Source: a virus
IMG/VR virus record: IMGVR_UViG_3300026488_000015
Coordinates: 82,526-146,525 of that record
DNA: 64,000 nucleotides
Direction: 5' to 3' (one strand)
Positions 5,274 through 62,086 of this stretch are shown one piece after another. Numbering within the stretch: position 1 is the first letter of the stretch; each line of letters opens with the position of its first letter. Under the pieces are notes generated by a model. That model was given only the letters and a program-made list of their open reading frames with translations, was not told the DNA's origin and did not search any database. A program made the position numbers and the translations under genes.

Positions 5274-5323
5274 TTTATTCCTTAATTTTTAATATAATAT
5301 TATAACATAAAGTAGCTTAATGG

Positions 5324-6572: not shown

Positions 6573-6829
6573 TACATTCTACGCTACAAATGGATTAGAT
6601 AGGCTTATAGCATTCTCTGTTTGAAAATAGTATGAAATATCTCCGACTACAATACCCGCTAAAAATATCATTATGATTGCTTGGACGATGACACCACCAA
6701 CACCAGTCCCATCTTGTTTAAATATCATAAATACAGCAATAACGAATAAAGCTAACTGTGCTGCTAATACAAACTGTGTTCCCACTATAATTCCCGCCAC
6801 AAAAACCCCTATCGTAAGTATGAATTCCA

Positions 6830-7990
6830 TTATAGACCCTCTACGAATTCTTTTGCTTTACCTAAAGAGTTGGTTTGTTTTTCGATGTGCTCTTTAACCA
6901 TTTTACCCGCAGTTTGTTCTACATCACGAAATGATGTGTTAAGTGACTTCATAACACCACCAAATAATGGTTCGTTTCTATATTTTAAAGCGAATTCTTT
7001 TCTGTTTTCATCAAAATCTTGGAAATACTTTCTTCTTAGTTCTTTAAAAGCAACCACTTGATGATTATAATAATGAGAAACTTTTTCTTCCATTTCAATA
7101 ATCATATCTTTTTTAGGACCTTGTACTAATTGAGCTATAACATCATCGATATTACCATCTAAGATAGTCTTCACTAAAAGATTCTCTCTAAATGCATCAG
7201 GACCAACTAAACCGTGTAATTGGATATAGTGGTCTGTTTTGATTTTTGCCATTTGACCATCTTCAAAAGTAACTACCCAACCTTCGATGTTTGCTTGTGA
7301 AGTTTCTTTGAGTCTTAATAAACCATCGAGTGCTAGATTTTCATTTGGGAAGATTTTAAAGTCTTCAGTCACATTAATATTGAAAATATCAGCTAAAGAT
7401 TTCATTTCTAATTTCTCTAAATAACTTCCATCATTTCTTCTAACTTGTAGTAGTGTCAAAGCATTAGCTACTTCATAATTTAGTACAATTTGATTTTCAA
7501 ATCCAACTAATTCAAAGATTGGAGTAAAATCTCTAATATTACATTCAGTAATAAAATGTTGGAATTCTCTGCTAGTATCATAGATATTTTGTGCCATTAC
7601 AGCTTGTTCTGAAATAAATGACATTTTAGATTTAGCTCTAACTTTGCTATTCGGGAACTCAACAAAAGAGATAACTGAACCGTCTTCTTTATTTTGTACA
7701 CGAGCAACTTTCTTACCTTGTAAATCTTCTGGCATCCACCCTAAAGTTTGACCATAATTGAAGAATTTTTGCATTAAAAGATTTCTTTTCCAAGTGCCAT
7801 CTGGTTGTTCAATGAATGTTAAACCTCTAAGTTCAAATGCTTCATCATTTGCGAAATCAGAAATTGATGCAAGGCGATAATCATACATTACTACATTAAC
7901 ACCTTCAACTTCTCGTTCTGCTTTAATAAATGCTTCATTACGAGCAACAATTTCATCACATTCTTGTTTTGTTTTTAAATAAAATTTCAT
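6830..7990 (-). CDS. rnlA: RNA ligase 1 (T4 RnlA-like)
   Basis: ELRGLTF, KFFN, KEDGS (motif I), FEL, EGWVV, KIKT..Y. Confidence 0.9.
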   Translation of the reverse strand: MKFYLKTKQECDEIVARNEAFIKAEREVEGVNVVMYDYRLASISDFANDEAFELRGLTFIEQPDGTWKRNLLMQKFFNYGQTLGWMPEDLQGKKVARVQNKEDGSVISFVEFPNSKVRAKSKMSFISEQAVMAQNIYDTSREFQHFITECNIRDFTPIFELVGFENQIVLNYEVANALTLLQVRRNDGSYLEKLEMKSLADIFNINVTEDFKIFPNENLALDGLLRLKETSQANIEGWVVTFEDGQMAKIKTDHYIQLHGLVGPDAFRENLLVKTILDGNIDDVIAQLVQGPKKDMIIEMEEKVSHYYNHQVVAFKELRRKYFQDFDENRKEFALKYRNEPLFGGVMKSLNTSFRDVEQTAGKMVKEHIEKQTNSLGKAKEFVEGL

Positions 7991-8545
7991 TTCTTATCCT
8001 TCTTTTGTTCGTATGATATAATCATCTTGAATTATTTTAGTAAATTCTTTAATAGCTTTAATTTCTTTCTTGTATGGTATAGTGTTATTCAAATCTATCA
8101 TAACATCTTTAAGCGAAATTAGCAGATTTGTTTTGGTTGTTATTTGTTTATTACAAATTCTATCCATATTACTATAAATTTTGAAGCATTCTATTATAAA
8201 GGCCTCAATATTATCAGCACTTCTAAAAGACTTATCAGTTAAATTAAGTTTATTCTTTATAGTGTTAAACAATAATTGGCTTTCGCAGAATGAAGAGAAA
8301 TTATTCATCTAGTATCCCTTCTTTGACTAATGCATCTAATTCTTTTCTTAAATTAGGCATCAATCTTTTCATCTTTCTAATATTTTCTGCGTGTCTTACC
8401 GTAGAAAATAATGTACATTCTTTGTCTGAATATTTCTCGTTCAGGCTTTCTTTAAGTTCATTAATTTCTATTAGTACATCAGAAAATTCTGAATCTGTTA
8501 ATGACAATAAATCTTCTTTCGTATAATTCATTTCTTATCCTTCTC

Positions 8546-8581
8546 TCTTTATATGTAATATTATAACATAAGTAACCTTAA
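8546..8581 (-). promoter_or_regulatory. Representative copy of the phage early promoter family (about 35 copies, all minus strand)
   Basis: Minus-strand consensus TTAAG-N~8-TGTTATAATATTACATATAAAGA followed by an AAGGA RBS. Copies near 5300, 6220, 8560, 8980, 9780, 11930, 12180, 14670, 15440, 15900, 16270, 17575, 21170, 22665, 23765, 25170, 27490, 28810, 30965, 32380, 32970, 37165, 39555, 40280, 43025, 45780, 46150, 46925, 50235, 51925, 53630, 55405, 56715, 61405, 63735. Confidence 0.85.
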
Positions 8582-9020
8582 GACCTTCTTAATTTCCAGT
8601 CCGACCACTCTCAGGTTCTACACCTCTTCTACGAGGCATTTGTTTTGCTATTTGTAATGCTGTTAATTTCATTTTCTTATCCTTTATTAGTATAATTGTT
8701 CATTTCATTAATGGATTTTTCTACTAAGATTCTTAAATATTTTGTCTTTTGTTCGTAAGCCTCTTTAGGGGAAGTACCAAACATATTCCAACGGTCATCG
8801 CACTTTAATTGATTGCTTGATGCTTTTATCGTATCTCCGAATTGGTCGATTAGTAAAAAATAACCTCTTAAACCACCATCAAAACTTTTAATAACTTCTA
8901 ATGCTTCTTTTGGATTATCTCTGTGGTAAAATATCTTTTTTAACATTTTTAGTCCTTATCTCTCTTTATATGTAATATTATAACATAAGTAACCTTAAAA
9001 GTAGATTAAGATTATATCAT

Positions 9021-9746
9021 TTATGCATACATTTTGATGTGATTGATTACATCTTGATTATTGTATTGACCCATTTTAAATCTACCTAATGCTGAATTTA
9101 TTATCTCGACATTCGTTAAAGACTTAAACTCTTCTTTTGTAAGAATTGCTTTAAGCATTCTGAAAACTTTCATATCTTTTTTAACAAGACCAAAATGAAC
9201 CTTCTCACCAAAGATGGCATTCATACACTCATATCTATCTGAATACATATTTTTGATAAGATTCAATCTTTTTTCAAGTGAGTATTCTTTAATTCTATTA
9301 GTCATCTTTTTACTAATATCAGCATTAACCTCGACAATAACTGGTGAAGTTTTATAAGAAGTGTTCATAGGTTTTAAATTAAGAGGTGTAGCAACAAGTG
9401 TATGTGCTAATTTAGATAATCTGTCAGCATCTTCATTGAACTCTCTAGGAATCCAATTCAATGTGATGTTAAGACCTTTTGCTAATGTAGATGAAACACC
9501 TTTAGCAGCAACACCTCTATTATCTGTGAATAAATGAGCAGATTCAATATTTCTATCTCTCATATATGTAAGAGTCTTTACTAATGCCATCGTTTCCATA
9601 AGTTCTGAATTATTTTGTGCTTTCGTTTTGTAAGGTAATTCATATCTGATATAGATTTCTTCTTTCGTGTCAAAGTTATAGATACCTATACCACAAAAAC
9701 CTTCGTGGTAACTAGCATCGAAACAGATTTTAGTTTGAGTACTCAT
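9021..9746 (-). CDS. RNase HI-like domain protein with C-terminal extension
   Basis: FDAS, E..AL, LFTDN, WIPREFNEDADRLS acidic catalytic pattern. Confidence 0.75.
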   Translation of the reverse strand: MSTQTKICFDASYHEGFCGIGIYNFDTKEEIYIRYELPYKTKAQNNSELMETMALVKTLTYMRDRNIESAHLFTDNRGVAAKGVSSTLAKGLNITLNWIPREFNEDADRLSKLAHTLVATPLNLKPMNTSYKTSPVIVEVNADISKKMTNRIKEYSLEKRLNLIKNMYSDRYECMNAIFGEKVHFGLVKKDMKVFRMLKAILTKEEFKSLTNVEIINSALGRFKMGQYNNQDVINHIKMYA

Positions 9747-12210
9747 TTTAAATTCCTTTTGTCTCTTTATATGTAATATTATAACATAAAGAACCTTAGA
9801 GCTTTATTAAGAGATTACGGTAACATTTTTCTGTGATTTATATTTTAGTAGTGCTTCGATTATTAGAGGGCTTTTCTTTGGGTTGATGGATACATTAGTT
9901 CTATCTAAAATTAGCACATTATTAACAAAATGAATAATTTCATCAAAGAATACTAGTGAATCAGAACCTAGAGTCAAATATCTACCTTCTTGGTCAATCT
10001 TGAGGTATTCGTATCCTAATGGTAACGATTCTAAAATCTCATCGAATTTTGGGTAGTTTAAGTGGTCTTTAAGACCTAATACTAATTCTTTGATATTATC
10101 TGGTATCTCGTGTTGCACTTCAAAAGGTTCAACCCAAGAGGTGCTCTTATTATATTTCGCGTGGTCACCGTGTGGTTTGCCTGTGTATAGAAAGAACCCT
10201 TTATGACCAGAGCCGTTTTTTTCTGTTCTAAGAATCCACGAATCGTATTCTTCTAAGTACATAACGGCTACATCTTCCATTGTAAGAGGGAATGCTATGT
10301 TATTTGTGTTTACTTCCATTAGTACACCCCATTTTCTAATTTAATAAGAGGACCTTTGATATTGTATATTTCTATATGAGGCATCTTATCATATTTCCCA
10401 TTTAGTAGCTCCTTATAATAAATATAAGCTTCTTCAGAATCTAAAAAACATCCTAGTTCTTGATTATTCCGACCATCATAAACCCTATACATATTATAAG
10501 CTTCTATATCGATTGACATCTGCTCGTAAAATTCTTTGTAACCCATAATTATCCTTTGTTCTCTGTGAAGCTAGTAAGCTAATATACCCAGCGTGAGGCT
10601 ATGACTAAGGCTCGTTTCCAGAATCTCGTTCATATCGTAATAAAATATCTGTCTCTATCTCTTTAAGCTTCTCAGCAATATCGTAATAGCATTCAGAATA
10701 GCAATCTTCACATAAATGTAAGTGAGTACCATATTTGTCGTGTTGTTCATTTAATGAAGCTGTAAGGTGGTGTTCACCAACCCCTCCACATAAATCGCAT
10801 TGTAAATCTTTCATTGATTAACCTTTCTAAGCTTCTGTACTTTTTCCCATCGTTCAAAATCTTCTGAATCTAAAGCCATCGGGTCTTTTTCTTGTACTTT
10901 TATTCCAAAATGTCTAGGTTGAAATTGAGCACCTGACATAATAATGGCAACTATAATAGTCCACTCACTCCAACCTAGAATGATTATGAGGTACAGAAAT
11001 ATACCCCAAATCATTCCTTCATAAAGCACTGTGTACAATAAGAAGTAAAATAATCTAGTTGAGTCTTTCATTAGAGGTCCTCCAAAATATTATCTACATT
11101 TGCAAAGAATACGGTGTTATAAGAACCATCGTATCCCTCGAATGTAACATAAGATGTACTATCTTCTATTTCAATGTCTTCAATGGTTAAAACGCAACCT
11201 AACGAAAACTGCTCTTTCATTCTTTTTTGGTCGTTTGCGTAACCATTATTAGGGAATGCAAAGACTACCCTACTACCCGCTTCAGAATATATATCCATCA
11301 CGGGTCTAGTACCTATAATAGTGTTTGGTATTTTGTCTTCTATTGTGACTTCATCAACGGGGTCAAACGAAATATTCAGCTGTACCCGAGTACCAACCAT
11401 ATCCACTTCATAAATATCTAACTCATTTAATCTTGATTCTGCTTGGGCAATAATAATTTCTTTTCTCGTATGTAGTCTAGCTCTACTAATGTTAGCACCG
11501 AACTCGGTGCTGCTGTTAATATACGATACCAAATAAGGGTAATTATTCTCGCCCTTTTTCTTTAAATAGTAGTTTTTCATAGTTTTCCTTATACAAAAAA
11601 TGCCATCTGAAGAGCCAGAAGCTCATCACTGGTTAATGGTTTAATATTGCTCTTTGTACCTTTACTGAATACATAAACAGAATTCCTAGTACTGATAGAA
11701 ATCTCGTAATAGTGGCGTGAAACTTCGTTGTACTCTATTTTTTCTATTGTAGATGTACTATATCTACCGTGTCGCAAATCAAAATTGCAATCAGTAGCAT
11801 CGAATGTAAAACTAGCAGTCATATCGATATGTAATTTACATTCTTTACCTACGATTTCATCAGCATTAGAATTTGTTGTGCTTAGTAATGTTGTGGTCAT
11901 TATTTTTCCTTTTCTCTTTATATGTAATATTATAACACAAAGTAGCTTAAACCTTCTTTTTAAGTATCATTTGGTTCTCTCCAAGTGCCAAAATTATATG
12001 TCTCACCATTAAATGGCTTCCATAAATCAAAATATAGTATTTTTGTTTGTGTTTTATTCCAACATCTGATTTGTGTATCGGTGTGCTCGATAAACTCTCT
12101 TATCTGATAATGAGTTTTATGCCATTCATTTTTTCTAACAAATATTAACATTATAATTCCTTTTCTCTCTTTATATGTAATATTATAACATACTAAAGAT
12201 AAGAGCCACC

Positions 12211-14640: not shown

Positions 14641-16521
14641 TTTCTTTCCTTCTTATTTTGTATATGTAGTATTATAACATAGTATTACTTAAAGCCTTCT
14701 TAAATTCGCTCACCCAAAAAGAAAGGGAGTTCATCCAACGGGTATGCGTTTGTGTCATTTTGGTATCTGTCTTTTAGTACTGTAAATGAATCTTTATCAA
14801 CATAAACTGCCGCATCAGCCTCAAAAAGTGTTTTCATATTTTTGGGTATAATATCACCATCTTTAATGTTTACATCTTTTGTTCTGTATATGATAATCAT
14901 TCTTATCCTTTGATTTGTACCAGAATAACATCTGTAATCGGTACAGTAATCTGCATATACCAATTACTAAGCGTTACTTCATCTTCTTTAACTGAAATTA
15001 CTTTATAGTTTTCGTGTGTTTTTAGGAATGGATGGAATCCATTATATTGTACTGTGTCATCTTTTTCCATTCTATTGTCTCTCAACTTTATAATCTTTTG
15101 CTTTGTCATAAAACAGAGCAATAGCATTCAATTCTCTAACGCTGTATTCATCAATCTCGATGAGTTTAGATTTACCTGATTTGTGTGTGATTTTAAATTG
15201 TGTAAACATTATATATCTCCATTTCTAGCTTCTTCAGCTCTGTAACCACGAATGTCTGCTCTACGAAGGTTCTCTTTAACCTGAGCAACTCCGATGTCTC
15301 TAGCACTCTCTAAAGCACTCTCTGTGCTCATCTGACAATCATCATTCCAAGAACCGTTATTAAAACTTCGTACTGATAATTCGATTTCTGTGATTTCTGT
15401 TTGAGTTAATTCTTTCATTTCTTATCCTTTATATGCAATATTATAACATAAGTAACCTTAAAGCTAGTTGAAGTTAATCTCTGTATTTGAAACTTTTTTC
15501 TTCGTTGGTTTTACTGAATCTAAAAATTTCATATTTCTTGTCTTCTCTAATATAGTTTCTATCATTTTATCGGCATAATCAGTAGCATTTATGTTTAGAG
15601 TAGCTGTATATTGTTTATCGCTCTCAGTAGCACCATTGTAGAAACTCGAATAAGCATTTGACCATATGACCATATAATCAGATTTTGTCATATCCATTAT
15701 TTCTCCAATTTCAGCTCAATAACATTACCTGCTTTAGGCATTATCTGCATGTTTGCACCATCTAAAGAAATAGTAACCGTACCATTCTTTGTGAAGTGAA
15801 CTAGCATTTCCACATCGTTACCTAAGTCCATAAAGACTCTCTTTTCTTTTGGTAAATTGATTTCCATCTTATCTTTCCTTATCTTTCTTTATATGTAATA
15901 TTATAACATAAAAGACCTTACAGCCACCTTAAAATGTTGTAACTGTTGGTATCTCATTAGAATCTTTTCTTAATTCTACTTCGTTGCATAGTTCATCAAC
16001 ATCTATACCACTAAAAAACTTGATGAATCGTTTGATTAACGAATCCATCTTATAGTCCTTCTACTTCTACGATTTGTTCTAAAATATATTCAGGAATCTC
16101 ATTGATATTAGATGTCATTTCAACACCATTTCGTTCAATCTCTGCTGCTAATTTATTGTAAAAATTACTGATACCCAAAGTACTATCACCTTGACCTCTA
16201 ACGATGTTCTCTAATGAGTTTAAAATTGATTCTTTCATTTCTTATCCTTTGTCTCTTTATATGTAATATTATAACATAACGAACCTTAAAGGCTACTTAA
16301 TATTTATTTTCCATTTCGGTTGTTACTTTAATATGGTCACTACAATCTCTTACCCACATAGTGGTCCTTGTACCCGTATCGATTTGGCATTCTTCAAGAC
16401 CATTTTCGATTGCTCTTTGTGTTGTTTTGTAATCTGCGTAAATTGCTGCTATACCTGCTATACTTAGTAATATTGCTACTACTACTGATATGATTGTTTC
16501 ATTTTTATTCATTATATATCC

Positions 16522-36000: not shown

Positions 36001-36064
36001 AGAATTTAATATAGGTGTATGCATAGAAGATTCCGTAAACGGGACTGTAATGGTTAAAGTCTAA
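33026..36064 (+). CDS. Tail fibre/receptor-binding protein with internal repeats and a C-terminal chaperone/peptidase-G2-like domain
   Basis: T/S/N/G-rich; repeats VNGNTVLGNANTD, LG.AVTDST.IRGTVTI, VAQGTAPL.V.S.TKV..LN.DYLDG; C-terminal ADVAENY...GVVSTNPA..MN. Confidence 0.8.
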   Translation: MITRSFNKIDLDLAVVEAEIAGVVISTNKITSVQSNSTLTLEGNGTGKITLNDDTKVNGSLSTSKDVVFHSDFALIADDSSGEFSNRSGTNIDHIWHNDTTNSWNFVSDGTYRKDGISGSSTLRAQHLALGSHLTVNGNTVLGNANTDSTTARGTVTLSDAGKLTNIKGTLNVDQAVSFDSTLNVASTTTLNSTLTVNGSTTLKSNLTVNGNTVLGNANTDTSVIRGTLTLSDLDKLTTIKGSLRINQDLVIDKALNVTNDLVVGDFNDSNSNITVLAGETKIAQISAYGSSQGTGIVYVGQSSSHGGGIVYNGDDNPNLPFSTDSISMFRRSSGVDYEIIHASHGSSRVLFNDSITIEGTSDSSSTITGSFQTKGGVGIAKKLYVGTSVYAPTYYDLNNTGYYGNFASTSRMNLLNLTTLNVYGITTLGDAVTDSTRIRGTVTISDNTKLTKIEGKLTVDEATILSSTLNVNGNTTLGNAVTDSTTIRGTVTIGDDTKNTRIGGTLSVDETATFSGIINANAGIKQDNFSILNGSDTWLRTSGNTGWYSATHGGGMYMTDTTWVQTYADKGLSGRVLRSTVAQGTAPLVVTSTTKVAKLNVDYLDGQDISYYRNATNLNAGTISDARLPNIITSDIKGIKYVDSSNEMTLAQGFVGGRLYLNYRGATSAITELYIANGRGATTTNVIARQYTSNVAQGTAPLIVASSTKVTNLNADYLDGQTLTSAGTANTVVGRDGSGDINARLFKSTYGTTSSLAATADICFRNSTSDNYLRFVDHAGIISWIGKVNDSQKLDNLDSTQFLRSDTADTYTSLSGGRLTATGTGNNYTNGGIEVRSSGSAIPTIGFHKPGAFAGELQLRANNEFYFRNNGDTGNANVTAEVFRGKATSANYADVAENYLSDSVQVPGTVMGIGGENEIAVWTEGMPLAGVVSTNPALIMNNEDSIKDNELYLEIALKGKIPCFIEGEAKKGQYLVPSSNGKAKVSTTYNPEFNIGVCIEDSVNGTVMVKV

Positions 36065-37116
36065 GTAAGAAAACTTAGCACTACTTTATTCATAAACTCT
36101 CTATCTGATTTCTCAGGTAGAGTAGTCCTCAACATAAGTTCATCAACTCTATCTAAAGTATCTCGTACTTCATCAAGAGCATCATCTACATCGACACGGC
36201 CTTCTTTGACATCTTTCAATCTCTCTGCTTTTGTGAGAGGAAATTTAAGAAAGTTGGTGGTAAGAAGTTCTTCAACCTCTACAGCTACTCTAAGAGCGTG
36301 AGATAAAGCTTTAAAGTCTGTTTTTGATTCAGTCTTAGCAACAGTTTTTGTTCTGTTACCAAAACCTTCATATAATTTCTTAACTCTCTCAAGCATATAC
36401 AAGAAAGTAACATTTCCTTCGTACATTTTACCAAGGACAGAAAAATACTCACATTCAGTATGTTCACCAAGACCACGAGAGTTAGGTGCCATAACGAACT
36501 TAACATATTTGTATCCTCTTGTAATAACTTTCAAATCATCAAATCTATCACTAAGTTTTGTATCAGGTGAACCTTGTGCCCAGCCATCTAGTGCTTTTAC
36601 AAGTTTATCTAGCTCTGCATATCTATCACCTTTGACACCGAATTTCTTCGTTTGTCCGACAGCATATCCAACAAATTTCTTCATATTTCTATTTTGGAAT
36701 TTTGTGTGATTATCTTTCATTACTTTAGTAAATTCAGGTACTTCGTAAACGACTGTATCCTTTCTAAACATAGAGTAAAGTAAATCTACTGCACCCGTTT
36801 CAGAACCTTCGAGTAAATCCATAAATTTGTATGGAGAATATCCATCTAAATCTACATCATCAGCACCATTCTTTTCTTTAGTGTCTTTACCAACTTTAAG
36901 AAATTCTACATCTTTTTTCAATAGAACATCTTCTTTACTTGGAGCGAACAAAAATTTATAATCAGTATCAGAATTAACATTATCTGTACCGTATAATTTT
37001 GAACCACTAAGAGTCACATATAGAACCCTAACATTGTGTTTTTCTTCTAGTCCTCTGAGGACCTCTTTTAGTTTTTCGTTTGTCATTTTATGACCTTTAT
37101 TTTGATTTTCCACCAA
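36061..37116 (-). CDS. Pol-beta-type nucleotidyltransferase (RlaP-like)
   Basis: SGSKLYGT...SDTDY, KALSHALR. Confidence 0.8.
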   Translation of the reverse strand: MVENQNKGHKMTNEKLKEVLRGLEEKHNVRVLYVTLSGSKLYGTDNVNSDTDYKFLFAPSKEDVLLKKDVEFLKVGKDTKEKNGADDVDLDGYSPYKFMDLLEGSETGAVDLLYSMFRKDTVVYEVPEFTKVMKDNHTKFQNRNMKKFVGYAVGQTKKFGVKGDRYAELDKLVKALDGWAQGSPDTKLSDRFDDLKVITRGYKYVKFVMAPNSRGLGEHTECEYFSVLGKMYEGNVTFLYMLERVKKLYEGFGNRTKTVAKTESKTDFKALSHALRVAVEVEELLTTNFLKFPLTKAERLKDVKEGRVDVDDALDEVRDTLDRVDELMLRTTLPEKSDREFMNKVVLSFLT

Positions 37117-37723: not shown

Positions 37724-37731
37724 TATTTATA
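37724..37731 (-). promoter_or_regulatory. T4-type late promoter TATAAATA
   Basis: Exact match overlapping the stop of the upstream gene. Confidence 0.7.
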
Positions 37732-37978
37732 AGAATAAGTGAGGTGCCAGTTCTTTAGCTTCTTCTAAAGATTTAAAATCGTGTTTAATGTTGTTGGATT
37801 CCATTTTGTAGTTTTCTATCAGCTCGTAATCGCCTGAAGCACTATGGATGACTAAAACATCATCTAAGGTATATCGTTCCGTGTCTTCATCGTATCCGAG
37901 GACTTCGGCAAAGAATCTGAATTCGGCTCTATCGTCCTCTTTGTAATCCACATAAACGATAGCACCTATCCCATACAT
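37727..37978 (-). CDS. Hypothetical protein with PHLFL tag
   Basis: Ends ELAPHLFL. Confidence 0.65.
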   Translation of the reverse strand: MYGIGAIVYVDYKEDDRAEFRFFAEVLGYDEDTERYTLDDVLVIHSASGDYELIENYKMESNNIKHDFKSLEEAKELAPHLFL

Positions 37979-37980
37979 TT

Positions 37981-38454
37981 TTAGCTCTTCGAGAATAAAT
38001 GAGGGTTATTTTTCTTCATTGAATCCCACGAGTGTTTCGCAGCATCTGTAAGCTCAACAGCTTCTTCAAGCTCGTACTCTTCAGTTCTATCGTTATCATA
38101 TGGTTTAATCATAACAGGCGTACCTGATGCTAAATCCACGATACCCATAATGTCAAAAATATCTAATGAGCGGTAATAAGCCTCACCGTCAAAACCCGTA
38201 ACGATATAAATCGTGTCGTTATCTACATTGTAATAGCTGTCATCTAGCGACTGGCCTTCGATGTCTAATACCATCATTCCTTCAGACTGCTCTAAAACAT
38301 CTTCTGGTAGTGGTTTATCCCATCGGTCTTCTGGTGTTAAAATTAATCTGAATGGTATCCCAGCATCTAAATAAGTTGCTACTAGCATAAACATTTGGTC
38401 ATCTATCACTTCTTTTACCATTTCCGGGTAGTCTGTTTGTGGGGCTTTCATCAT
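37981..38454 (-). CDS. SspB-like (ClpXP adaptor fold) protein
   Basis: By-eye match to the SspB pattern: YLDAGIPFRLIL / LPEDV...GMMVLDI / NDTIYIVTGFDG...DIMGIVD, then an acidic tail ending NNPHLFSKS. Confidence 0.5.
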   Translation of the reverse strand: MMKAPQTDYPEMVKEVIDDQMFMLVATYLDAGIPFRLILTPEDRWDKPLPEDVLEQSEGMMVLDIEGQSLDDSYYNVDNDTIYIVTGFDGEAYYRSLDIFDIMGIVDLASGTPVMIKPYDNDRTEEYELEEAVELTDAAKHSWDSMKKNNPHLFSKS

Positions 38455-39120: not shown

Positions 39121-39534
39121 TTACATCCTTAAAATTTTTGTTCGTTCGTTGAAATAAAAGACAATATCGTCCATTATTTTTTGTTGATTCTTAGATGTTA
39201 CTACACCGTCATCGATTCTGACCCAGCTGTAAGAGAAAATCTCCTCCGGGTCAGCACTAATACTAATTTCTTTATCAGTAAAACTTATAAGGAATATACC
39301 TACATCTTTACGGGAACCTTTTTGGAAAAAGTAATCACCAAGATATGACTGTGCTACTACAATTCCTGATTCTTCTTCGAATTCACGAACTGCACAGTCC
39401 TCAATGCTTTCTCCTTCTTCAATCTTTCCCTTGAAAAAATTGTAGTCACCTATTCTTCCTGTTTTATTTAATAGGACATAAACACCGTCCTCTCTAATCT
39501 GATAAGGACAAATACCATAAGAAAATTCTTTCAT
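39121..39534 (-). CDS. NUDIX hydrolase
   Basis: KGKIEEGESIEDCAVREFEEESG Nudix box. Confidence 0.9.
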   Translation of the reverse strand: MKEFSYGICPYQIREDGVYVLLNKTGRIGDYNFFKGKIEEGESIEDCAVREFEEESGIVVAQSYLGDYFFQKGSRKDVGIFLISFTDKEISISADPEEIFSYSWVRIDDGVVTSKNQQKIMDDIVFYFNERTKILRM

Positions 39535-41683: not shown

Positions 41684-42994
41684 CTAATCCTTCAGGTCGA
41701 TAAGGTATCTTTTTTGTCTTGGGTATGATTGTACCTGAGAACCTTCATTCATTTTTGTCGCCGATAACCAGAAGATAGGTGCTTTTGGTAATGCTTTCCA
41801 AGAAGATAGTTCTTCTATATATAAATCTGTAATAAACATAATAGCATTAAACTTCATTCTATTTTCGTGAATATAATCAATACCAGCTTCCATATAAGTA
41901 CCACCACAACCATTTCTCTCGAATGAAAAATCTTTAGCACTAAAATCAGTAACAGCAGAAACTTGCGTATCAACTTGAACAACTTTTAATGTCGTGTTTG
42001 TCATTTCGCAAATATGTCTAATCTCATTGAGAGGTACTAAGATTTCCTCATTTGACATTGAACCTGAAGTATCAACTAAAACGATTAACTCGAAAGTCGT
42101 ATCTTTTGTTTTACCTCTCAAATCCATACGACCAGGCATTCTACGGTCACGACGCTTGATAGTCAATCTCTTATTTGCCTTCTTGTTACCTACAAGTTTT
42201 TTCAACTCTTTTTTCCAGTTCACTTGAGCTTTTCGTTTGAATAAATCCAACATACTAGCGATGTCCCCAGGTAGATTACCTTTCGATTTACTGATAGCAC
42301 TTTCAAGCATATCACTCGTGATACTATCCATAATTTCTTGAGCTTCTTCTGAAATATCTCCCCATTGGTGAACACCGTCTGGTCCATCACCTAGAATAGG
42401 ATTCCCATCAGCATCTAAAGGTTGCCCGTTCTCATCGACATTACCACTCTCTATAGCATCTTTAATAGCTTGAGCGAGTGCTTTCTGTTTCTCTTTCTTC
42501 TCTTCTTTTTGGTCTTGATAATCTTGGTCTTCATCTAATAATCTGTAATACTGTTCGGTATTCAGCTTAGAAGGAAAATTGTAATCTCGGTAATCAACAC
42601 AACCTTTTGGTAAATGAGTCAAGACCTGATTAATGGCCATATCCATAGCTATATTAGCTTGTTCGTGGTCTTCAAAATCTTTTCTTACAGTCAAGTGTCG
42701 ATACATAATATGCAACATTTCGTGCTTGATAACATCGATTCGTTCTCTATCTGATAAATCTTCAAAGAAGAATGGGTTAATCATTAGGTTGTATGCACTG
42801 TTACTAAACGATACACCTGCAGTAGGTAAAGCATTTGACATTCGTACCTTACATTTAGCAATCAAGTGAGCATAAAAGTTATTTCCTGAAACAGTATCAG
42901 TAAACATAGCAACGATACTTTTTTCGAATGCATCACGATTAAATACCTTTACTTCTTTTTCTTCTTTTTCATCTTCTTTTGGTGTCTCGTTCAT
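41684..42994 (-). CDS. HExxH metallopeptidase-like + VWA domain protein (DUF2201-type), MoxR partner
   Basis: HEMLH, NIAMD.AIN, DTSGSMS (MIDAS), GGT, ITD. Confidence 0.85.
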   Translation of the reverse strand: MNETPKEDEKEEKEVKVFNRDAFEKSIVAMFTDTVSGNNFYAHLIAKCKVRMSNALPTAGVSFSNSAYNLMINPFFFEDLSDRERIDVIKHEMLHIMYRHLTVRKDFEDHEQANIAMDMAINQVLTHLPKGCVDYRDYNFPSKLNTEQYYRLLDEDQDYQDQKEEKKEKQKALAQAIKDAIESGNVDENGQPLDADGNPILGDGPDGVHQWGDISEEAQEIMDSITSDMLESAISKSKGNLPGDIASMLDLFKRKAQVNWKKELKKLVGNKKANKRLTIKRRDRRMPGRMDLRGKTKDTTFELIVLVDTSGSMSNEEILVPLNEIRHICEMTNTTLKVVQVDTQVSAVTDFSAKDFSFERNGCGGTYMEAGIDYIHENRMKFNAIMFITDLYIEELSSWKALPKAPIFWLSATKMNEGSQVQSYPRQKRYLIDLKD

Positions 42995-44605: not shown

Positions 44606-45745
44606 TTAAACTAGTTTGATTTTTTTCACTATTCTCGCGAACACTTCTTTTGATGTAGGCTCTTTAACCCAAGTGTTGAAGTTCTTGCTATCAGTTTTCT
44701 TGATGTTCGTGATGAACGCTGTAGCAACTTCGATTGGACAACCATAACATAAGTGATTCAGTAAAGTCCACTTACCTTTCTCTAATGACAATGCATAAAC
44801 TTCCTCAACCAAGTTGTTAATTACTGGCTGTTCTTGGTTGTCTAATAGTTTAGCAATCAAACCGTAAGATGCATCTAAGTTTTGTGCATTCGTGTTAGTT
44901 TTCTTAACCACAGACTTAACTGCTCTAGTAATATCATCAACACCAATCATATCAGAATGATTCTTATAAAAATTTAAGAATTCAGTACCTACAGCACGAC
45001 CTAAACGACCTCTTAAAAGAGTGTAGAGTGCTGGATTATCTTTACCTGAGTTACCTAAATTATCAAGCAATGTTGAAACTTTTGCCCAAGCTCTTGGTGA
45101 TGTACCGTGTGAACTATCTTCAGGTGAGAAGTGAATCATCTTCGGGTTCTTAGCAATGTATTTTAAAATAACATTATTTACACCTGATTTACGGGCCCAA
45201 ATTAGCCATTCTTCGGCATCAGGCTTAATCTCGATTGGTCCAACGAATCTGTCAATAAGTGCATCATCCATTTCATTCGTTTGATAATCACCAGTTGGAT
45301 TACCTGCAGCGATAATCATCGTTTCTACACCGTTATATGTAGGCAATTGATGCTCGTGAATTTGTTTATCGAGAACTAACTGCAATGCTGCTTGTAAAAC
45401 ATCTGATTGAGCACGATTAATTTCATCTAAGAATAAAGAACAAGCTTTACCTGCTTTGTTTGCATCATACATTCTCTTCAACCAAGAAGGCGTTGACCAG
45501 TACATAATTTCTTCTGATTTCGTTTCGTACTTATCTAAAGAAACTTCTTCATTTTTCGTGTTGTACGGGATACCAATAAGGTCTCCAACTTCCATCTGTG
45601 AAAGGAATAATGTTTCATTATGAACACCTGCGTCTAAAGCCCATCTTTCAGCTCTCTGTGATTTACCAATACCGTGTACTCCCTCTATATAAACACAATC
45701 GTTTGACGCTTGACATACATTAAATACTTCTTCTAAGTGATTCAT
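44606..45745 (-). CDS. MoxR-type AAA+ ATPase
   Basis: GVHGIGKS, GDLIGIP, LFLDEINRA, AAGNP, ALIDRF, SPRAW. Confidence 0.88.
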   Translation of the reverse strand: MNHLEEVFNVCQASNDCVYIEGVHGIGKSQRAERWALDAGVHNETLFLSQMEVGDLIGIPYNTKNEEVSLDKYETKSEEIMYWSTPSWLKRMYDANKAGKACSLFLDEINRAQSDVLQAALQLVLDKQIHEHQLPTYNGVETMIIAAGNPTGDYQTNEMDDALIDRFVGPIEIKPDAEEWLIWARKSGVNNVILKYIAKNPKMIHFSPEDSSHGTSPRAWAKVSTLLDNLGNSGKDNPALYTLLRGRLGRAVGTEFLNFYKNHSDMIGVDDITRAVKSVVKKTNTNAQNLDASYGLIAKLLDNQEQPVINNLVEEVYALSLEKGKWTLLNHLCYGCPIEVATAFITNIKKTDSKNFNTWVKEPTSKEVFARIVKKIKLV

Positions 45746-50688: not shown

Positions 50689-51135
50689 CTAGTAATCCTT
50701 CAATGCTCTAGCTGTGTCGATATTTTGCTGTTTCTCTTTAAGCGAATTTCGTTTATCGTAATCTCTTTTACCACGACCAACAGCTATCTCAAGCTTAATC
50801 GAATCTGAAGAATCAGGTTGGAAAATCTTCAAAGGGACGATAGTGATACCGTTTTCTTGTGTAGCCACATCGAGCTCTCTGATTTCTTTCTTTGTGAGTA
50901 ATAATTTTCGTGGTCTTACCTCATCGAAATGACCATAAGCAAAATTCTCTGGTTTAGAAATGTGTGCTTGCATTAAGAATGCTTCACCGTTCGAAATCTT
51001 TACATAAGCTTCTTTCAATGATATTCTACTATCACGAATTGCTTTAACCTCAGGTCCTTCTAATACCATCCCAGCAATGTAGTGGTCTGTTAAATGATAA
51101 GAGTGTGTTGCTTTTCTGTTTCTATTGTATTCCAT
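50689..51135 (-). CDS. smpB: SsrA-binding protein SmpB
   Basis: NRKA.H.Y, AGMVLEGPEVKAIR, R.RKLLL.KKEI, G.TIVPL, GKR.YDKR. Confidence 0.93.
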   Translation of the reverse strand: MEYNRNRKATHSYHLTDHYIAGMVLEGPEVKAIRDSRISLKEAYVKISNGEAFLMQAHISKPENFAYGHFDEVRPRKLLLTKKEIRELDVATQENGITIVPLKIFQPDSSDSIKLEIAVGRGKRDYDKRNSLKEKQQNIDTARALKDY

Positions 51136-52730: not shown

Positions 52731-53603
52731 TTATCTCTCGAAGTTTTTCAAGATAAGCTTAAGGTATTTGTCTGGCGTTTTTGCTTTCATTTCTTGTGCT
52801 AATTTCTCGATTTGAAACCAAGCTGCACCAGAATCTCTAAGACCTAAAAAGTTTTTGAAGCTTCTAAGATTTATTGTCATAACAGCAGAAACCTTAAAAT
52901 TATCTGAAATGATATATTTGAAGCTATCACCAACATTTCTTTTGTCTTTTGAATTAAGGAGTTTCACAAATGTATGATACTCTGATTCAGCTGGAATTCT
53001 TTCTCTTACTGATTTCGCTACAGAAAGTTCTAACCATTTTGTTTGACCAATTTTGTCATAGTGATATTTCATTTTGTCAAAGATACCGTGTAGTTCAATT
53101 CTATTCATTTTTTCATCTGCAACCACAAACATATCGTATCTAAGAACCTCATCTACGAATGTTTTACTAGGTGCTTGTAATAGAGCACAAGCAGTAAAAG
53201 CATTAATAAGAGAACTCATAGTATATCGTGTCGATTGAACCGAATAACTAGCAATTCTATGCCTAGCTAGTTCTTGTAGAACGCCTCTTGAAAAATCTGT
53301 AAGTAAAAATGTAAGTACTGAATGTTCTAATGTTGATTCGTGAAAATGTACAAATGATAATGATTGAAGCAATTCCGATTCTTCCACTGTCTGAAGACCT
53401 TTAGATAGAGTGCCTATAAGAATTTCATCATTTCTTTTAACGCTATCATTTAATGCCTTGATACAGATATTCTCTGATTTATCAAAGCTATTGTAGCATT
53501 GTCTTGCAGCATATTCGGATTGACCGATTCCATTATCAGCAATTAAGTGTGCTGTTGGGTAGATGTAGTCGATTCCGTTGTAGTCATAAGTTTTTTGTGT
53601 CAT
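52731..53603 (-). CDS. thyX: FAD-dependent thymidylate synthase
   Basis: HESTLEH, ELARHRIASYSVQSTRY, INLRS..NFL.LR. Confidence 0.92.
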   Translation of the reverse strand: MTQKTYDYNGIDYIYPTAHLIADNGIGQSEYAARQCYNSFDKSENICIKALNDSVKRNDEILIGTLSKGLQTVEESELLQSLSFVHFHESTLEHSVLTFLLTDFSRGVLQELARHRIASYSVQSTRYTMSSLINAFTACALLQAPSKTFVDEVLRYDMFVVADEKMNRIELHGIFDKMKYHYDKIGQTKWLELSVAKSVRERIPAESEYHTFVKLLNSKDKRNVGDSFKYIISDNFKVSAVMTINLRSFKNFLGLRDSGAAWFQIEKLAQEMKAKTPDKYLKLILKNFER

Positions 53604-53642: not shown

Positions 53643-54518
53643 TTAAATTTCTGAGGTGTCAAATTCTTGACCTTTTTTGACCAGTCCAGCGAAACCATCT
53701 TCTTGAACCATTTGATTTACTTCATTGTATGTTTTACTTCCTAACATATAATGATACAGATACATTTTTGCTCTTGTATGGCTATCAAGTTCTAATAGTT
53801 GTCTATACTGAGCGTGAACACTATTTGGATACTCAGCGAACTCGCAATCGTGAAATATAATATCACTTTGTTGAAAATATGTAAGCATCTGATTAGGCGC
53901 GAACTGTGAGTCTCCACTAATAAAAACAGTCTTATCATCATCTTCAAACATTAAACCATAGCTAGGTACAATAGAACGATTATCTACAATATGAACTGTT
54001 TGAATGGGTCTGATTTCTGTACCGTAGAACTCAAAAGTATCATTATTACTCATATACTCTGTATCAAAATATGTCTCTAATGTATTTGTTTGACCTTGAA
54101 TAGATTCTAAACCACCTCTCCAAGTTTTGTCCCAACCATTAAATAAGATAGATTTATGAGCATATAGATTAGGTCTCATTGAACCGAATTCAGTCTTACC
54201 GAAATTAAATACTTCAAAATATGTCTTGAAAGCAATATACTCGATACCACCAGCGTGGTCTCCGTGCAGATGTGAAATGTAAATACTATCTAAATCTTGA
54301 GGTTTTAAACCTGCTTCATCAAGAGCATCAGGAATCGTTGTACCTACATCATAAAGAAGATGTTTTGTTTCTATATTTCTTTGAATCATTCCAGGCATAC
54401 CTGCTGGAGTGTCAATCTTTTTTCTTACTTCAGTATCTTTACTAAGTAAAATATTACTCTGATAGTTTTCTTTCCCTAATACGAAAGCACTACCACTTCC
54501 TAAAAATTTAATCTTCAT
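53643..54518 (-). CDS. Metallo-beta-lactamase-fold cyclic nucleotide phosphodiesterase, Apyc1-like
   Basis: LGSGSAF, HLHGDHAGG, W....RGGL, SGDS, FHDC, VHA...LL, YLYHY. Confidence 0.75.
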   Translation of the reverse strand: MKIKFLGSGSAFVLGKENYQSNILLSKDTEVRKKIDTPAGMPGMIQRNIETKHLLYDVGTTIPDALDEAGLKPQDLDSIYISHLHGDHAGGIEYIAFKTYFEVFNFGKTEFGSMRPNLYAHKSILFNGWDKTWRGGLESIQGQTNTLETYFDTEYMSNNDTFEFYGTEIRPIQTVHIVDNRSIVPSYGLMFEDDDKTVFISGDSQFAPNQMLTYFQQSDIIFHDCEFAEYPNSVHAQYRQLLELDSHTRAKMYLYHYMLGSKTYNEVNQMVQEDGFAGLVKKGQEFDTSEI

Positions 54519-56745: not shown

Positions 56746-59106
56746 CTAAGAACAGCTTTCACACGCGTATTCTTCGGCTCCATCTTTTTGTTGCTTCAAA
56801 TAATAGTAAGTTCGTAAGCCTAAGAAGAACCCATATAAGTGAATTCTCGACATTTCATTAAGTGAATCAGGTCGTTTAATATAAACATTAACTGACTGCG
56901 ATTGGTCTAACCACTTTTGTCTTACTGCCGCATTTTCGATTAACTTGTACATATTACATTCGAAGGCTGGCTTATACCACTGATTGTTCAATCTAAAGTT
57001 GCTAACTAAAGTAGGAATAGTCATTGTGCCCTCTTCCTTGTAGAAGAACTCATTTATAGGTTCAGTTGATTCAGTTGCATTGATAGCTTTACCTGAAGTT
57101 GCTGTAGGCGCAATTGCCATTAACTGTGCATTTCTAATACCATTGATAGATATTTCTTGACCTAGTTTATCCCATCTGTCCATATTTACTTCGTACTTCG
57201 TAAGCTTAGTAGCTTCTTTGTTAGCTTTATGAATAGGTAAGATACCTTTTGACCAATCAGTCTCATAGAATTTCTCGAAACGACCTTTCTCTTTAGCTAG
57301 TTCCATTGATACTGTTGTAATCATAAAGGCTAAATCATCAAATAATTCATCTGTTTTCTCTAACGCTTCTTGCGTATCAATAACGATTTTGTTAAGAGCC
57401 AAATAGTTAGCAAAGTTAAGTACTCCAATACCTAAATATCTGTACATCATATTAGAGTTTTTACCCTCTTTAACTGGATAGTTAGCTTCATCGACCGTAT
57501 TATCAAGAGCTCTTACAAGCGTTCTAATTAACTGCCATTTTTCCTCTTCATCCATATAAAACCATTTTTCAAGATTTACTGAAGAAAGGTTACATAAAGC
57601 AATTTCTCCTGCTGTATATCTCTTAACGATTCTCTTCTCGCCATCTTCCATTGTTACTAGTTCCTCGTTGATAAGCTCACTAGGACGACTTGGTAACAAG
57701 ATTTCAGTACATAGATTACTTGAACCTATATAACGGTTTAGCTGTGTGTTTTCATTAACATTTTCTTCGTGAAATAAGTAAATATTTCCCGTTTCAGAAC
57801 GCTCTTTCATAACCTTAGCCCATAAAGTCCGAGCTTTCACTTTCTTCTTTCTGATACTAGATTTTTGTGAGTACTCTTCATAAATAGCATCAAATTCATC
57901 TCCATACACACCAATTAATTTAGGTGTATCTTTCGGGTCGAATAAGAATATCTCACCATCTTCAATAATCTTGTTAATGAAAAGTCTATTAAGCTTAATA
58001 GCATATTGTAAACCTCTAGCACGATTCTCATCTGTACCACCATTAGATTTAAGTGATAGCATATCATCGACATCTAAATGCCACCAAGAGAAATATACAG
58101 CTAATGCACCTGGTCGTTTACCACCTTGATTCCAAGCTTTCATAATCGATTCATAGAATTTCATAAATGGAACTGGTCCTGATGAATATCCTTGTGTACC
58201 CTCAATATATGAACCTTTAGCTCTCATTGAAGAAGCATCTAGTGCTGTTCCACCCTTGTACTTTGAGTAAATACCTAAGTTTTTACCAGTGTCTAGGATG
58301 TTGTGTGAGTCATCGCTTAGTGTATTTAATACACAACTAGATAACTGTTGTCCCGGTGTTAAAGCGTTAAGGATAATAGGTGTAGCTACTGTGTATTCGT
58401 GCTTCGATATAGCATCGTACTCTTCGATAACTTTTGCTACTCTGTCTTCTTCATTAATCATAAGAGCCATTGCAACTCTCATATAAGATATTTGAGGAAG
58501 TTCAAGTTTCTTAGTCTTTGTGTAATTTAAACAATATTTGTCGAAAAATGTTACTAGACCTTTATAGTTAAAAATTAAATCTCTCTCAGGTTTAAGAGCA
58601 TCATTAAGTGCTATGATTTCATCTACTGTGTATTTCATTACAGAAACTTTATCATAAATCTTGTTTTCAACACCTTTATCCATAATATCTAAAAGAGAAG
58701 GATATTCTTTATGATTACTAATGTTATAAGTTTCTTTATAGTAAGACAATAATTGTAGTTTTGCTGCAACCATTTCCCAAGCTGGGTTTAACATACTAAT
58801 CTTATTAACAGCAGTAACGATTAACTGTTGGTACATATCTTGAATCTTAATCTTTTTATGAAGTTTAATTTCAGTATCTCTAAGAAGTTCTTCTTTCATA
58901 AATTCATTAGGACAAGCCCACTCTAAAACTTTATCAAGCTTCTTAGGCTTAAATGGTTCTTCGTGACCTTTTCTTTTAATAATGATAATCTTATTAGCTT
59001 TCATTGCATCTTGATTACTAATTTCAATGCTCTCTTTATTTTGGACAGCATTGTTAAGGCCTGCTAGTGAGACCTTATTGTATCTTTTTTGTTTGTTTTT
59101 ACTCAT
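56746..59106 (-). CDS. nrdA: Ribonucleotide reductase class Ia alpha subunit
   Basis: ATP-cone, ATPI, SSC, SNLCTEI, CNL, APTATS, terminal CESCS. Confidence 0.95.
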   Translation of the reverse strand: MSKNKQKRYNKVSLAGLNNAVQNKESIEISNQDAMKANKIIIIKRKGHEEPFKPKKLDKVLEWACPNEFMKEELLRDTEIKLHKKIKIQDMYQQLIVTAVNKISMLNPAWEMVAAKLQLLSYYKETYNISNHKEYPSLLDIMDKGVENKIYDKVSVMKYTVDEIIALNDALKPERDLIFNYKGLVTFFDKYCLNYTKTKKLELPQISYMRVAMALMINEEDRVAKVIEEYDAISKHEYTVATPIILNALTPGQQLSSCVLNTLSDDSHNILDTGKNLGIYSKYKGGTALDASSMRAKGSYIEGTQGYSSGPVPFMKFYESIMKAWNQGGKRPGALAVYFSWWHLDVDDMLSLKSNGGTDENRARGLQYAIKLNRLFINKIIEDGEIFLFDPKDTPKLIGVYGDEFDAIYEEYSQKSSIRKKKVKARTLWAKVMKERSETGNIYLFHEENVNENTQLNRYIGSSNLCTEILLPSRPSELINEELVTMEDGEKRIVKRYTAGEIALCNLSSVNLEKWFYMDEEEKWQLIRTLVRALDNTVDEANYPVKEGKNSNMMYRYLGIGVLNFANYLALNKIVIDTQEALEKTDELFDDLAFMITTVSMELAKEKGRFEKFYETDWSKGILPIHKANKEATKLTKYEVNMDRWDKLGQEISINGIRNAQLMAIAPTATSGKAINATESTEPINEFFYKEEGTMTIPTLVSNFRLNNQWYKPAFECNMYKLIENAAVRQKWLDQSQSVNVYIKRPDSLNEMSRIHLYGFFLGLRTYYYLKQQKDGAEEYACESCS

Positions 59107-60304
59107 TTGAGCTCCTTACATCTTCATCGATTAATTGCTTAACTTCGATATTAATATCATTGATACTTTCTCGATAGAATTTCTTGAAAATTTCTTTTCT
59201 ATCTTCTGGAATAAACGAGAAATCATCTGACATATCATCTTGCATAATACCGATTGAATATGCAGTTCCTTCAGCTTCTTGTTGTGCTGTGTTGTCTTTG
59301 TTAATATCTTTGTAAGACTCAAACCATTGTACAACATCTGTTTTTTCTTGCCCGAATGCCTTCTCGACACCGATTGATGCTAATCTATCATCAACATAGT
59401 ATTTCATAAACTGCTCAACAACCGGCTCAGTAAGAGTAGGAATATCTCCAAAACTTAATAAGTATCTAGTAAATTCCATTTCATCTTTAAGCACATCTGT
59501 GAATACTTTTGTAGCCATTTCAGTAAACCAATCAGATTTAATAAGGTCCGAGAACCCTTCATCTGTACTTCTTCTAAGAATCTGAATAGTACCCGAAATC
59601 ATCGAGGTATGTAAATCTTCATCAAAGTTGATAAGTTTAATGATTCTAGCAGCGCCTTGAATTTTGTTGTTATAAGAGTTGTTAATAATATAAGTAACCA
59701 AAAATGATACTTGAAACTTAATTCCCTCTAAAGCAAGAATACTAACTAATAGCTCTAAGATTAATTTTTTCTTCTCTGTTTCATCTGTGATGCTATCAAT
59801 ATTCTTTACACGAGCATAAAGTTTGATTTCTTTATCTACACGCTTTTGAATCTCAGGATAGTCACCAATCTTATCAAAGATTACGCTTGAATCAGCAAAT
59901 ATCCCTCTAAGAATATGAGAATAGCTAAGTGAGTGTATTAACTCGAAATAACCTTGAGTCTTGAACATAGCTTCAAATTCTGGGTTCGTACATAGAGAAG
60001 CAAGTACTTCCTCTAAACCACTGTTTTGTGCTGAGTCCATTAATGTCTGAAACAACCATATCCTAATCATCACTTCTTGAATAAATTCAGGTAGCTCAAA
60101 GAATTTGATGGCATCACTAGTCATCGAAATTTCTTTGGGATTCCAAAACGCATTTCTTTGTTTTTCTTCCATTGTAACAGCAAATTTATAAGTTGGATTG
60201 TCGTATCGTTGAAAACCTGAATATTCACCGAAGAATATTTTTTCTTTCTGTTTTTCAGGTACTAGGTTTGTAGTACATAAAATTGTTTTGCAAGAACTGC
60301 CCAT
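59099..60304 (-). CDS. nrdB: Ribonucleotide reductase class Ia beta subunit
   Basis: FW.P.E, DSAQ, ELIHSLSY, LEGIKF, DEDLH. Confidence 0.93.
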   Translation of the reverse strand: MGSSCKTILCTTNLVPEKQKEKIFFGEYSGFQRYDNPTYKFAVTMEEKQRNAFWNPKEISMTSDAIKFFELPEFIQEVMIRIWLFQTLMDSAQNSGLEEVLASLCTNPEFEAMFKTQGYFELIHSLSYSHILRGIFADSSVIFDKIGDYPEIQKRVDKEIKLYARVKNIDSITDETEKKKLILELLVSILALEGIKFQVSFLVTYIINNSYNNKIQGAARIIKLINFDEDLHTSMISGTIQILRRSTDEGFSDLIKSDWFTEMATKVFTDVLKDEMEFTRYLLSFGDIPTLTEPVVEQFMKYYVDDRLASIGVEKAFGQEKTDVVQWFESYKDINKDNTAQQEAEGTAYSIGIMQDDMSDDFSFIPEDRKEIFKKFYRESINDINIEVKQLIDEDVRSSNE

Positions 60305-60725
60305 TTATTTTCCTTTTTGTAGTAACTTTATTTATCAGTCCTTGAGGTCTTCTAACATTTGCTCTCGTTCTTCTGGTGTTTGATTTTTATGAAAATCTGC
60401 TATCTCTTTCTCTTGCAACCCAATGTTTCCTTGAATATACTCGTTTGTATGATTCAGGATACCATAAGAATCGCCTAGACAAATAGCATAAACTTCATCT
60501 TTTGCTGCTTCATCTAATTCTTGATACTCACTAGTAATTGTTGAGTTAGCTTTCTTAAAATATCGTTTAAAAGTCTTTTTCGTACCTTTAAATACTATAC
60601 CCTCTCCAATCTCACCTTCACCAGTATTATCAAGATTTTCTTTTGATGATACATATACACACATTTTGCTATCACTATAAAGAAGCTCTACGACTTCTTT
60701 AGTTTTTTTATTCACATATAACATT

Positions 60726-61561: not shown

Positions 61562-62086
61562 CTAGCATCTTTCAATTTCTCCTCTCTTGTTTTTCTTGTT
61601 TACTAATATACCGTCTGCTAGATTAAACATATCTTCTATATTTGTGAGCTTGTCTACAATAGTGCTTGACAACCCGTATTCAGAAGATGATATAGCTTCT
61701 AGCTTATCAGAAGTATCTTGCGTTTCTACGCCTTGTTTAAGGATGAAAAATTCATCACCTGATGTCCTATATATTTCAGAACAAGGGAAGGTCGATTGTA
61801 GTTCGCTGGCTACATCCTTGATGAACTCATCACCCGCTAGAAAACCTCTTTCTCTGTTGATAGCGTGTAAACCATTCAAATCAACAATACCTAACATAAA
61901 ATCACGACTAAAATACACATACTCGTGCCACAGCTCATCCAATCTACGATTAAAATCCAAACGACCTTTGAGGTTAGTCATTGAACAATATTTGTATTCT
62001 TTAATCTGAATCTTAAGCTTTTCATTCTCTGCCTGTAGCCTATGCATTTCGTCCATCATTTCTTCGTTAGTCATTTCGCTATTCAT
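61562..62086 (-). CDS. GGDEF-domain protein (SGDEF variant) with N-terminal coiled coil
   Basis: DLNGL..IN...G...GD, YRTSGDEF, AD. Confidence 0.8.
   Translation of the reverse strand: MNSEMTNEEMMDEMHRLQAENEKLKIQIKEYKYCSMTNLKGRLDFNRRLDELWHEYVYFSRDFMLGIVDLNGLHAINRERGFLAGDEFIKDVASELQSTFPCSEIYRTSGDEFFILKQGVETQDTSDKLEAISSSEYGLSSTIVDKLTNIEDMFNLADGILVNKKNKRGEIERC

Follow-up and report, generated by a model that had tools for sequence, protein, structure and literature searches.

The closest described relatives of the protein reported here are the SspB adaptors of proteobacteria and the SspB homologues of cultured phages. The C-terminus of alphaproteobacterial SspB, ...VSLDAFRKK, is presumably a docking peptide for the N-domain of ClpX; Chowdhury and colleagues reportedly described it in 2010 as a ClpX-binding peptide. 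[quoted passage not shown] Phages also encode proteins of this kind. For example, Pseudomonas phage pf16 gp18, Erwinia phage RAY gp39 and Ralstonia phage FLC1-1B gp93, among others, have the SspB fold and retain a C-terminal docking peptide, with tails of the host class (...PTLRVVK in pf16, ...PTLTVVK in RAY gp39 and ...FLSVVK in FLC1-1B). These tails set a precedent for a phage protein that combines the SspB fold with a conserved docking tail. Indeed, SspB homologues have been annotated in several jumbo and T4-like phages and have been discussed as such, so the kind is known; we found no report of a tested function for them. A different precedent is SPO1 gp53, a phage-encoded, adaptor-like protein for ClpCP and an example of a host Clp protease being redirected by a phage (PMC6873191). 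It is unrelated to the SspB-like protein, and its unfoldase is a different one, ClpC.

What does such a protein look like in an uncultured phage? The window analysed here is a 64,000-nucleotide stretch that corresponds to bases 82526-146525 of a 146.5-kb IMG/VR record, which has 33% GC and an estimated completeness of 68%. Within a long co-directional array of small genes, the window encodes an SspB-like protein of 157 amino acids at 37981..38454 on the minus strand, with the stop codon at 37981-37983. An AAGGA ribosome-binding site lies 7 nt 5' of the ATG, and the start overlaps the stop of the upstream gene by 1 nt. The product ends in ...SWDSMKKNNPHLFSKS (the same end is also given as ...HSWDSMKKNNPHLFSKS). 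Comparison with orthologues in related phage contigs gave dN values of 0.15-0.53 with dS saturated, which indicates that the gene is real and under purifying selection. Metagenomic orthologues share 75, 61 and 55% identity with the protein, and an identical protein is recorded on a 331-kb contig. Two neighbours are conserved in the phage clade, a NUDIX hydrolase gene upstream (39121..39534, minus strand) and a gene for an RlaP-family nucleotidyltransferase downstream (36061..37116, minus strand).

There is evidence for the SspB fold from a predicted structure and from profile comparison. An AlphaFold2 model of the protein, built on a family alignment (A2) that holds 106 of the 109 cluster representatives, has a mean pLDDT of 90.7. 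In the model, residues 5-121 (38092..38442, minus strand; pLDDT 94-98) form a predicted cargo-binding domain, with an N-terminal helix of 21 residues (11-31) followed by a small beta-barrel that extends to around residue 120. Next comes a short acidic linker (residues ~121-136; 38047..38091, minus strand; pLDDT 63-68), which varies in both length and sequence among relatives, and the tail is modelled as a C-terminal helix (137-149; pLDDT 93) and a one-turn helix (151-154). The order is that of SspB: a domain, an acidic and variable linker modelled with low confidence, and a C-terminal peptide conserved across the family. An earlier note on this DNA, made by a model from the letters alone, had described an acidic linker followed by the terminal residues KKNNPHLFSKS, and both are present as it claimed.

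The same note had proposed, from an alignment by eye with E. coli SspB, that the protein is SspB-like, and this identification stands. In a Foldseek search of the PDB with the model, SspB accounted for all of the top 15 matches (E 2e-4 to 2e-3, probability 1.0), with entries from E. coli, H. influenzae, Caulobacter and Agrobacterium, before a sharp drop. VIA, an aligner that is independent of Foldseek, agrees: it ranked four SspB representatives first (2nys, Z 9.1; 2qaz, Z 8.9; 8et3, Z 6.6; 1ou9, Z 6.5), with 102-110 of ~115 residues aligned across model residues 4-128, and placed generic SH3, Sm and WYL barrels below them at Z 5.6 or less. In the viral library BFVD, the structural matches are phage proteins that carry the annotation stringent starvation protein B. 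The profile comparison used 26 SspB genes extracted from proteobacterial genomes, 13 of the alpha type and 13 of the gamma/beta type. When hhalign was run with the 106-sequence family against all 26, it gave P 2e-5 and a probability of 76% over residues 9-116; against the gamma/beta type alone, P was 4e-5. Its register pairs the helix and TPhlvV with iPFrLiL, V.VP with kPLP, DGQIVLNI with mmVLDI, ARFGG with TGFDG and AV.AIY with DImGIV, reproducing the alignment that had been made by eye. On these predictions, the SspB fold of the protein is well supported.

Membership of the Pfam SspB family was not found by sequence, and of the sequence-based comparisons only the profile-profile one described above was significant. 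The Pfam model PF04386 matched neither the protein, nor its 106 relatives, nor a six-frame scan of the genome, even at E 10, and the only Pfam match of the protein was to NFACT-R, at E 0.017, below the cut-off. PHROGs and NCBIfam did not recognise the protein, and searches of PDB sequences with it, as a single sequence or as a profile, returned nothing meaningful. Matches to Kelch were rejected because they summed a 24-residue chance match to a repeat. Neither tblastn of the protein and two other members of its family, run on 50,697 phage records, nor megablast of 6 kb gave a match. In IMG/VR, close relatives of the protein were absent and two distant ones were found, both in records without ClpP. 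An exhaustive HMMER search collected ~109 sequence clusters, with representatives of ~150 amino acids, and the genomic context was uncultured-phage-like in all nine cases examined. Among the 106 aligned sequences, W45, L49 and P50 of the domain are near-invariant. Cluster look-ups gave no informative names; the nearest clusters in the ESM Atlas are labelled Campylobacterota, and some of them are named SspB. One relative comes from a hydrothermal-vent metagenome. The protein belongs to a separate SspB family by fold that is invisible to Pfam, NCBIfam, PHROGs and PDB sequence searches.

The tail of this family has a consensus of its own, S-[MI]-x-A-[FM]-[KR]-K-[NH]-N-P-x-[LM]-F, followed by 0-11 residues (mode 2-3) that are mostly charged. 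Numbered from the proline, its positions are S(-9), [MI](-8), x, A(-6), [FM](-5), [KR](-4), K(-3), [NH](-2) and N(-1). The serine, S142 in the protein described here, occupies one of only four columns in the 106 sequences that are at least 90% conserved. The residue between P and L varies: among 72 tails it is E in 21, D in 11, H in 10 and K in 8. The tails of the closest relatives read NPALF, NPHLF and NPELF, so the His is not conserved.

Comparison with the extracted SspBs suggests which part of this tail might dock. Those SspBs have C-termini of two kinds, ...RPxL[RK]V[VI]K in the gamma/beta type and ...[VI]VSLD[AKS]FRKK in the alpha type, and the alpha-type terminus, ...SLDAFRKK, is conserved where E. 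coli-type proteins have ...LRVVK. In 12 of the 13 alpha-type SspBs, a seven-column matrix (-9 to -3) built from the phage-family tails only had its best match precisely on the C-terminal SLDAFRK, with scores of up to 16.6 bits and shuffle p <= 0.004 in 10 of the 13; the same matrix found nothing in the 13 gamma/beta-type SspBs. In the reverse scan, a matrix of the alpha-type tails peaked within the last 30 residues of 77 of the 106 family members, where ~19% would be expected. In the protein described here, the best match to the alpha-tail matrix lies elsewhere, and its own segment SWDSMKK does not score. At the level of the family, therefore, judged by sequence, the first half of the tail matches the alpha-type SspB terminus, and does so in a position-specific way. 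The earlier note had placed PHLF where the docking peptide would be. The fold and the architecture are SspB-like, but it is not PHLF that looks like a known docking peptide for ClpX: in the family, the similar element is S-[MI]-x-A-[FM]-[KR]-K, immediately before NNP. We read the helix that precedes NNP as the candidate docking peptide, with its core at S142-K148 (SWDSMKK; 38011..38031, minus strand), a diverged copy of the family motif. NNPHLF, at residues 149-154 (37993..38010, minus strand) and followed by SKS, would then be an instance of a family-specific NNPx[LM]F extension that includes PHLF.

What else in the genome bears on proteolysis? The window encodes a phage ClpP (60726..61367, minus strand; Pfam 3.5e-50, below the NCBIfam equivalog cut-offs), a candidate partner of a ClpX-type unfoldase, and contig L009, from a related phage, has its adaptor gene at a distance of 0.8 kb from clpP. 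It also encodes a full-length SmpB, a trans-translation factor (50689..51135, minus strand; Pfam 4e-47, above the NCBIfam equivalog cut-off), whose gene is flanked by genes that carry the C-terminal tag discussed below. The matches to SmpB in a genome scan were from Balneolaceae, Gammaproteobacteria and others, and gave no help on the phage host. The 146 kb of the record yielded no ClpX zinc finger or Clp-type AAA_2 unfoldase, and no tRNA, tmRNA or other Rfam family. The record is incomplete, so the absence of ClpX, tmRNA and the like is weak evidence. The earlier note had suggested that the phage rewires tmRNA-tag proteolysis, which is a conjecture.

Several other genes of the record and of related contigs were seen along the way. 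Directly after clpP lies a gene for a 129-amino-acid protein of no known family (60335-60724, minus strand); contig L009 has the same pair, with a protein of 130 amino acids, followed by ribonucleotide reductase. Two genes on the minus strand, at 41684-42994 and 44606-45745, encode a putative metallopeptidase/VWA protein (DUF2201) and an AAA_5 ATPase that resembles MoxR; between them they may form a second system for proteolysis or remodelling. The DUF2201 gene is the immediate upstream neighbour of the SspB-like gene in contig L049. Outside the window, the record encodes a 426-amino-acid classical-clade AAA ATPase (G000:C1:9770-11050, minus strand) that has an unknown 160-amino-acid N-domain and a weak likeness to the PAN, Cdc48 and FtsH unfoldases; a tagged gene lies directly upstream of it, and in contig L050 RlaP is followed by an AAA gene of a comparable kind. 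Anti-defence genes include an Apyc1-type anti-Pycsar nuclease in the window (53643-54518, minus strand) and, in L009, Acb1 with an Acb2/Tad1-like gene (15073-15820). A GGDEF-domain protein, possibly a diguanylate cyclase, is encoded at 61562-62086 on the minus strand, and a GGDEF gene is also present in the distant contig L007. A block of nucleotide-metabolism genes, for ThyX and the large and small subunits of ribonucleotide reductase, and a gp44-like clamp loader, encoded at 52731-53603 and 56746-60304 (minus strand) and at G000 ~12.7-13.7 kb, show that this is a large T4-like myovirus.

The string PHLF is not confined to the adaptor. The window, translated in six frames, has nine exact PHLF strings, and every one lies on the minus strand, 1-3 residues from a stop. 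A relaxed form of the tag, P-x-h-[FLYWIM]-h-stop, ends 22 of the 273 minus-strand ORFs of the 146-kb record, against 0.2 expected from shuffles or internal frequency, and none of its 195 plus-strand ORFs. Nineteen of the tagged ORFs lie at window positions 4169-62598, on the minus strand, and three more at G000 5254-11398. The tagged proteins have 70-147 amino acids, with one of 271, and no Pfam domain was found in them. The codons of the tag vary at synonymous sites (CCT/CCA/CCG, CAC/CAT, TTA/CTA, TTC/TTT), which indicates that selection acts on the motif as protein sequence. An origin of PHLF at the DNA level, as a promoter, terminator or recombination site, was rejected on account of this synonymous variation and of flanks that are not conserved. 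Paralogy was likewise rejected as the source of the tags: without their last 8 residues, the 40 tagged proteins found in 7 phage pieces formed 31 groups with no links between them, and there were just two pairs within a genome. The tag persists in orthologues from five related phage contigs, at 32-46% identity. Tags are present in the clade that shares the gene order NUDIX, SspB-like, small gene, RlaP (L001, L002, L048, L049 and L050); within 20 kb of the adaptor gene, none were found in the T4-like contig L008 or the jumbo-phage contig L007. The adaptor family and its tail occur in these tag-free surroundings, so the family is broader than the tag. No such genome-wide C-terminal tag has been reported beside the SspBs of cultured phages.

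One tagged gene is paired with the adaptor. The next gene after the SspB-like gene (37727..37978, minus strand) encodes 83 amino acids ending in PHLFL, predicted to form a Tudor/SH3-like barrel followed by a helix-Pro-HLF end (AlphaFold2 pLDDT 93; helices at residues 71-77 and 79-82). The two genes are 2 nt apart here and form a conserved pair in four phages. Does the adaptor tail explain the tags? The earlier note had taken it as support for reading a tag on 25 proteins as a ClpX-type docking motif, but the tail does not establish this. In the tags, the aromatic residue is strictly penultimate and His is strongly preferred; the adaptor tail breaks this rule, with three residues after the F and, across the family, mostly E or D in place of the His. 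The sequence before the tags weakly resembles the family tail: it scores above controls on the family-tail matrix (p 5e-4 and 0.006), and most of the scores are negative. With a variable His, a different C-terminal spacing and a weak upstream resemblance, the rules of the tags and of the adaptor tail differ, so a shared partner is not established by the tail. The PHLF string in the adaptor does not by itself show that the widespread PHLFL tag serves as a motif for docking on ClpX. It is doubtful, in our estimation, that NNPxLF and PH-h-F-h-COOH constitute one docking code for a single hub, whether that hub would be the ClpX N-domain or a phage-specific assembly of unfoldase and ClpP. If they did, the phage clade would use a genome-wide short linear motif to tether its early proteins or to time their destruction, and the tags would have been modelled on the older tail of the SspB-like adaptor.

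What might the SspB-like protein do? We see about an even chance that it is one of a family of strongly diverged adaptors of the SspB type, here encoded by a phage, and delivers cargo to ClpX through its tail. The barrel (residues 5-121) would bind a cargo peptide, the tail would tether the loaded adaptor to the N-domain of the host ClpX, and degradation of the cargo by ClpX, together with host or phage ClpP, would be raised. The NNPxLF extension may give a second contact. The confidence with which the tail helix is modelled (pLDDT 93) means that it could pack on the domain instead of hanging free. All of the evidence on fold and tail would also apply to a decoy or anti-adaptor, whose tail would dock on the ClpX N-domain without bringing cargo for degradation and would block host adaptors and N-domain-dependent substrates. 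Competitive inhibition of this kind was proposed for the pf16 SspB by the authors of the pf16 paper, and the very short linker may be too short for productive delivery. However, conservation of the barrel over ~109 clusters, with W45, L49 and P50 near-invariant, argues for ligand binding rather than a mere handle, and a phage that has its own ClpP fits more proteolysis better than less. We regard a decoy as quite unlikely, along with its expected outcome, in which phage proteins would be protected or host regulators stabilised. It is very unlikely, as we see it, that the SspB-like barrel has been re-used outside proteolysis for nucleic-acid or small-protein binding, as in Sm, Tudor and WYL proteins, with a C-terminal helix that is structural. 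It is true that the structural neighbours of lower rank are barrels of the Sm/Hfq, WYL and SH3-like kinds, that the C-terminal helix is confidently modelled, and that the neighbouring genes encode a NUDIX protein and an RNA-repair-type nucleotidyltransferase. But SspB ranks clearly above the generic barrels, with the whole domain covered, including its N-terminal helix, and the family-level match of the tail to alpha-type SspB termini is position-specific.

The tail might also dock on something other than ClpX. Here the helix-NNP-xLF tail would bind the same hub as at least 22 small proteins with the PH-h-F-h tag, and the candidates for that hub are either phage proteins (the surface of ClpP, the AAA ATPase of the classical clade, the pair of MoxR and VWA metallopeptidase, the sliding clamp) or a host machine other than ClpX. 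Such a hub, and each of these candidates for it, seems to us unlikely, despite the P-x-h-F core that tail and tags have in common. The adaptor tail and its tagged neighbour share a predicted arrangement of helix, Pro kink and one-turn helix, the stretch before the tags scores above controls on the family-tail matrix, the tags are kept among divergent orthologues, and the adaptor and a tagged gene form a conserved pair. On the other side, the family tail is present in T4-like and jumbo-phage contigs that have no tags within 20 kb, and the preference of the tags for His and for a fixed distance from the C-terminus is seen in neither respect in the family tail. Most tag scores on the family matrix are negative, and the 146-kb record yielded neither a PDZ domain nor an S41 protease. 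If the tail docks on ClpX, as the adaptor reading proposes, then a ClpXP adaptor of their own would be common among large uncultured phages. Here it would come with ClpP and SmpB, which would make phage control of host proteolysis and of ribosome-rescue products directly testable.

How does the family compare with the known SspBs? The alpha-type proteins are its best structural matches: Caulobacter SspB-alpha (2qaz/2qas) and Agrobacterium AGR_C_3712 (2nys) align over 107-108 residues at Z 8.9-9.1, have the same order of domain, linker and C-terminal peptide, and end in ...SLDAFRKK, which the core of the family tail matches at the sequence level. The sequence identity to them is only 10-14%, however, and while alpha-type SspB ends at RKK, the tail of the phage family continues with NNPx[LM]F and a few charged residues. 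The linker of the phage family, at ~15 residues, is much shorter than those of proteobacterial SspBs. The E. coli and H. influenzae proteins (1ox9, 1ou9, 8et3) have the same fold (Foldseek E 2e-4 to 1e-3; Z 6.5-6.6), but the phage family lacks their ...RPxL[RK]V[VI]K tail. The SspBs of cultured phages are recognisable by sequence and carry gamma/beta-type ...L[RTS]VVK tails, unlike the present family. Thus, phage SspB homologues are a known kind, and what is new here is a variant that is invisible to sequence searches and has a composite tail.
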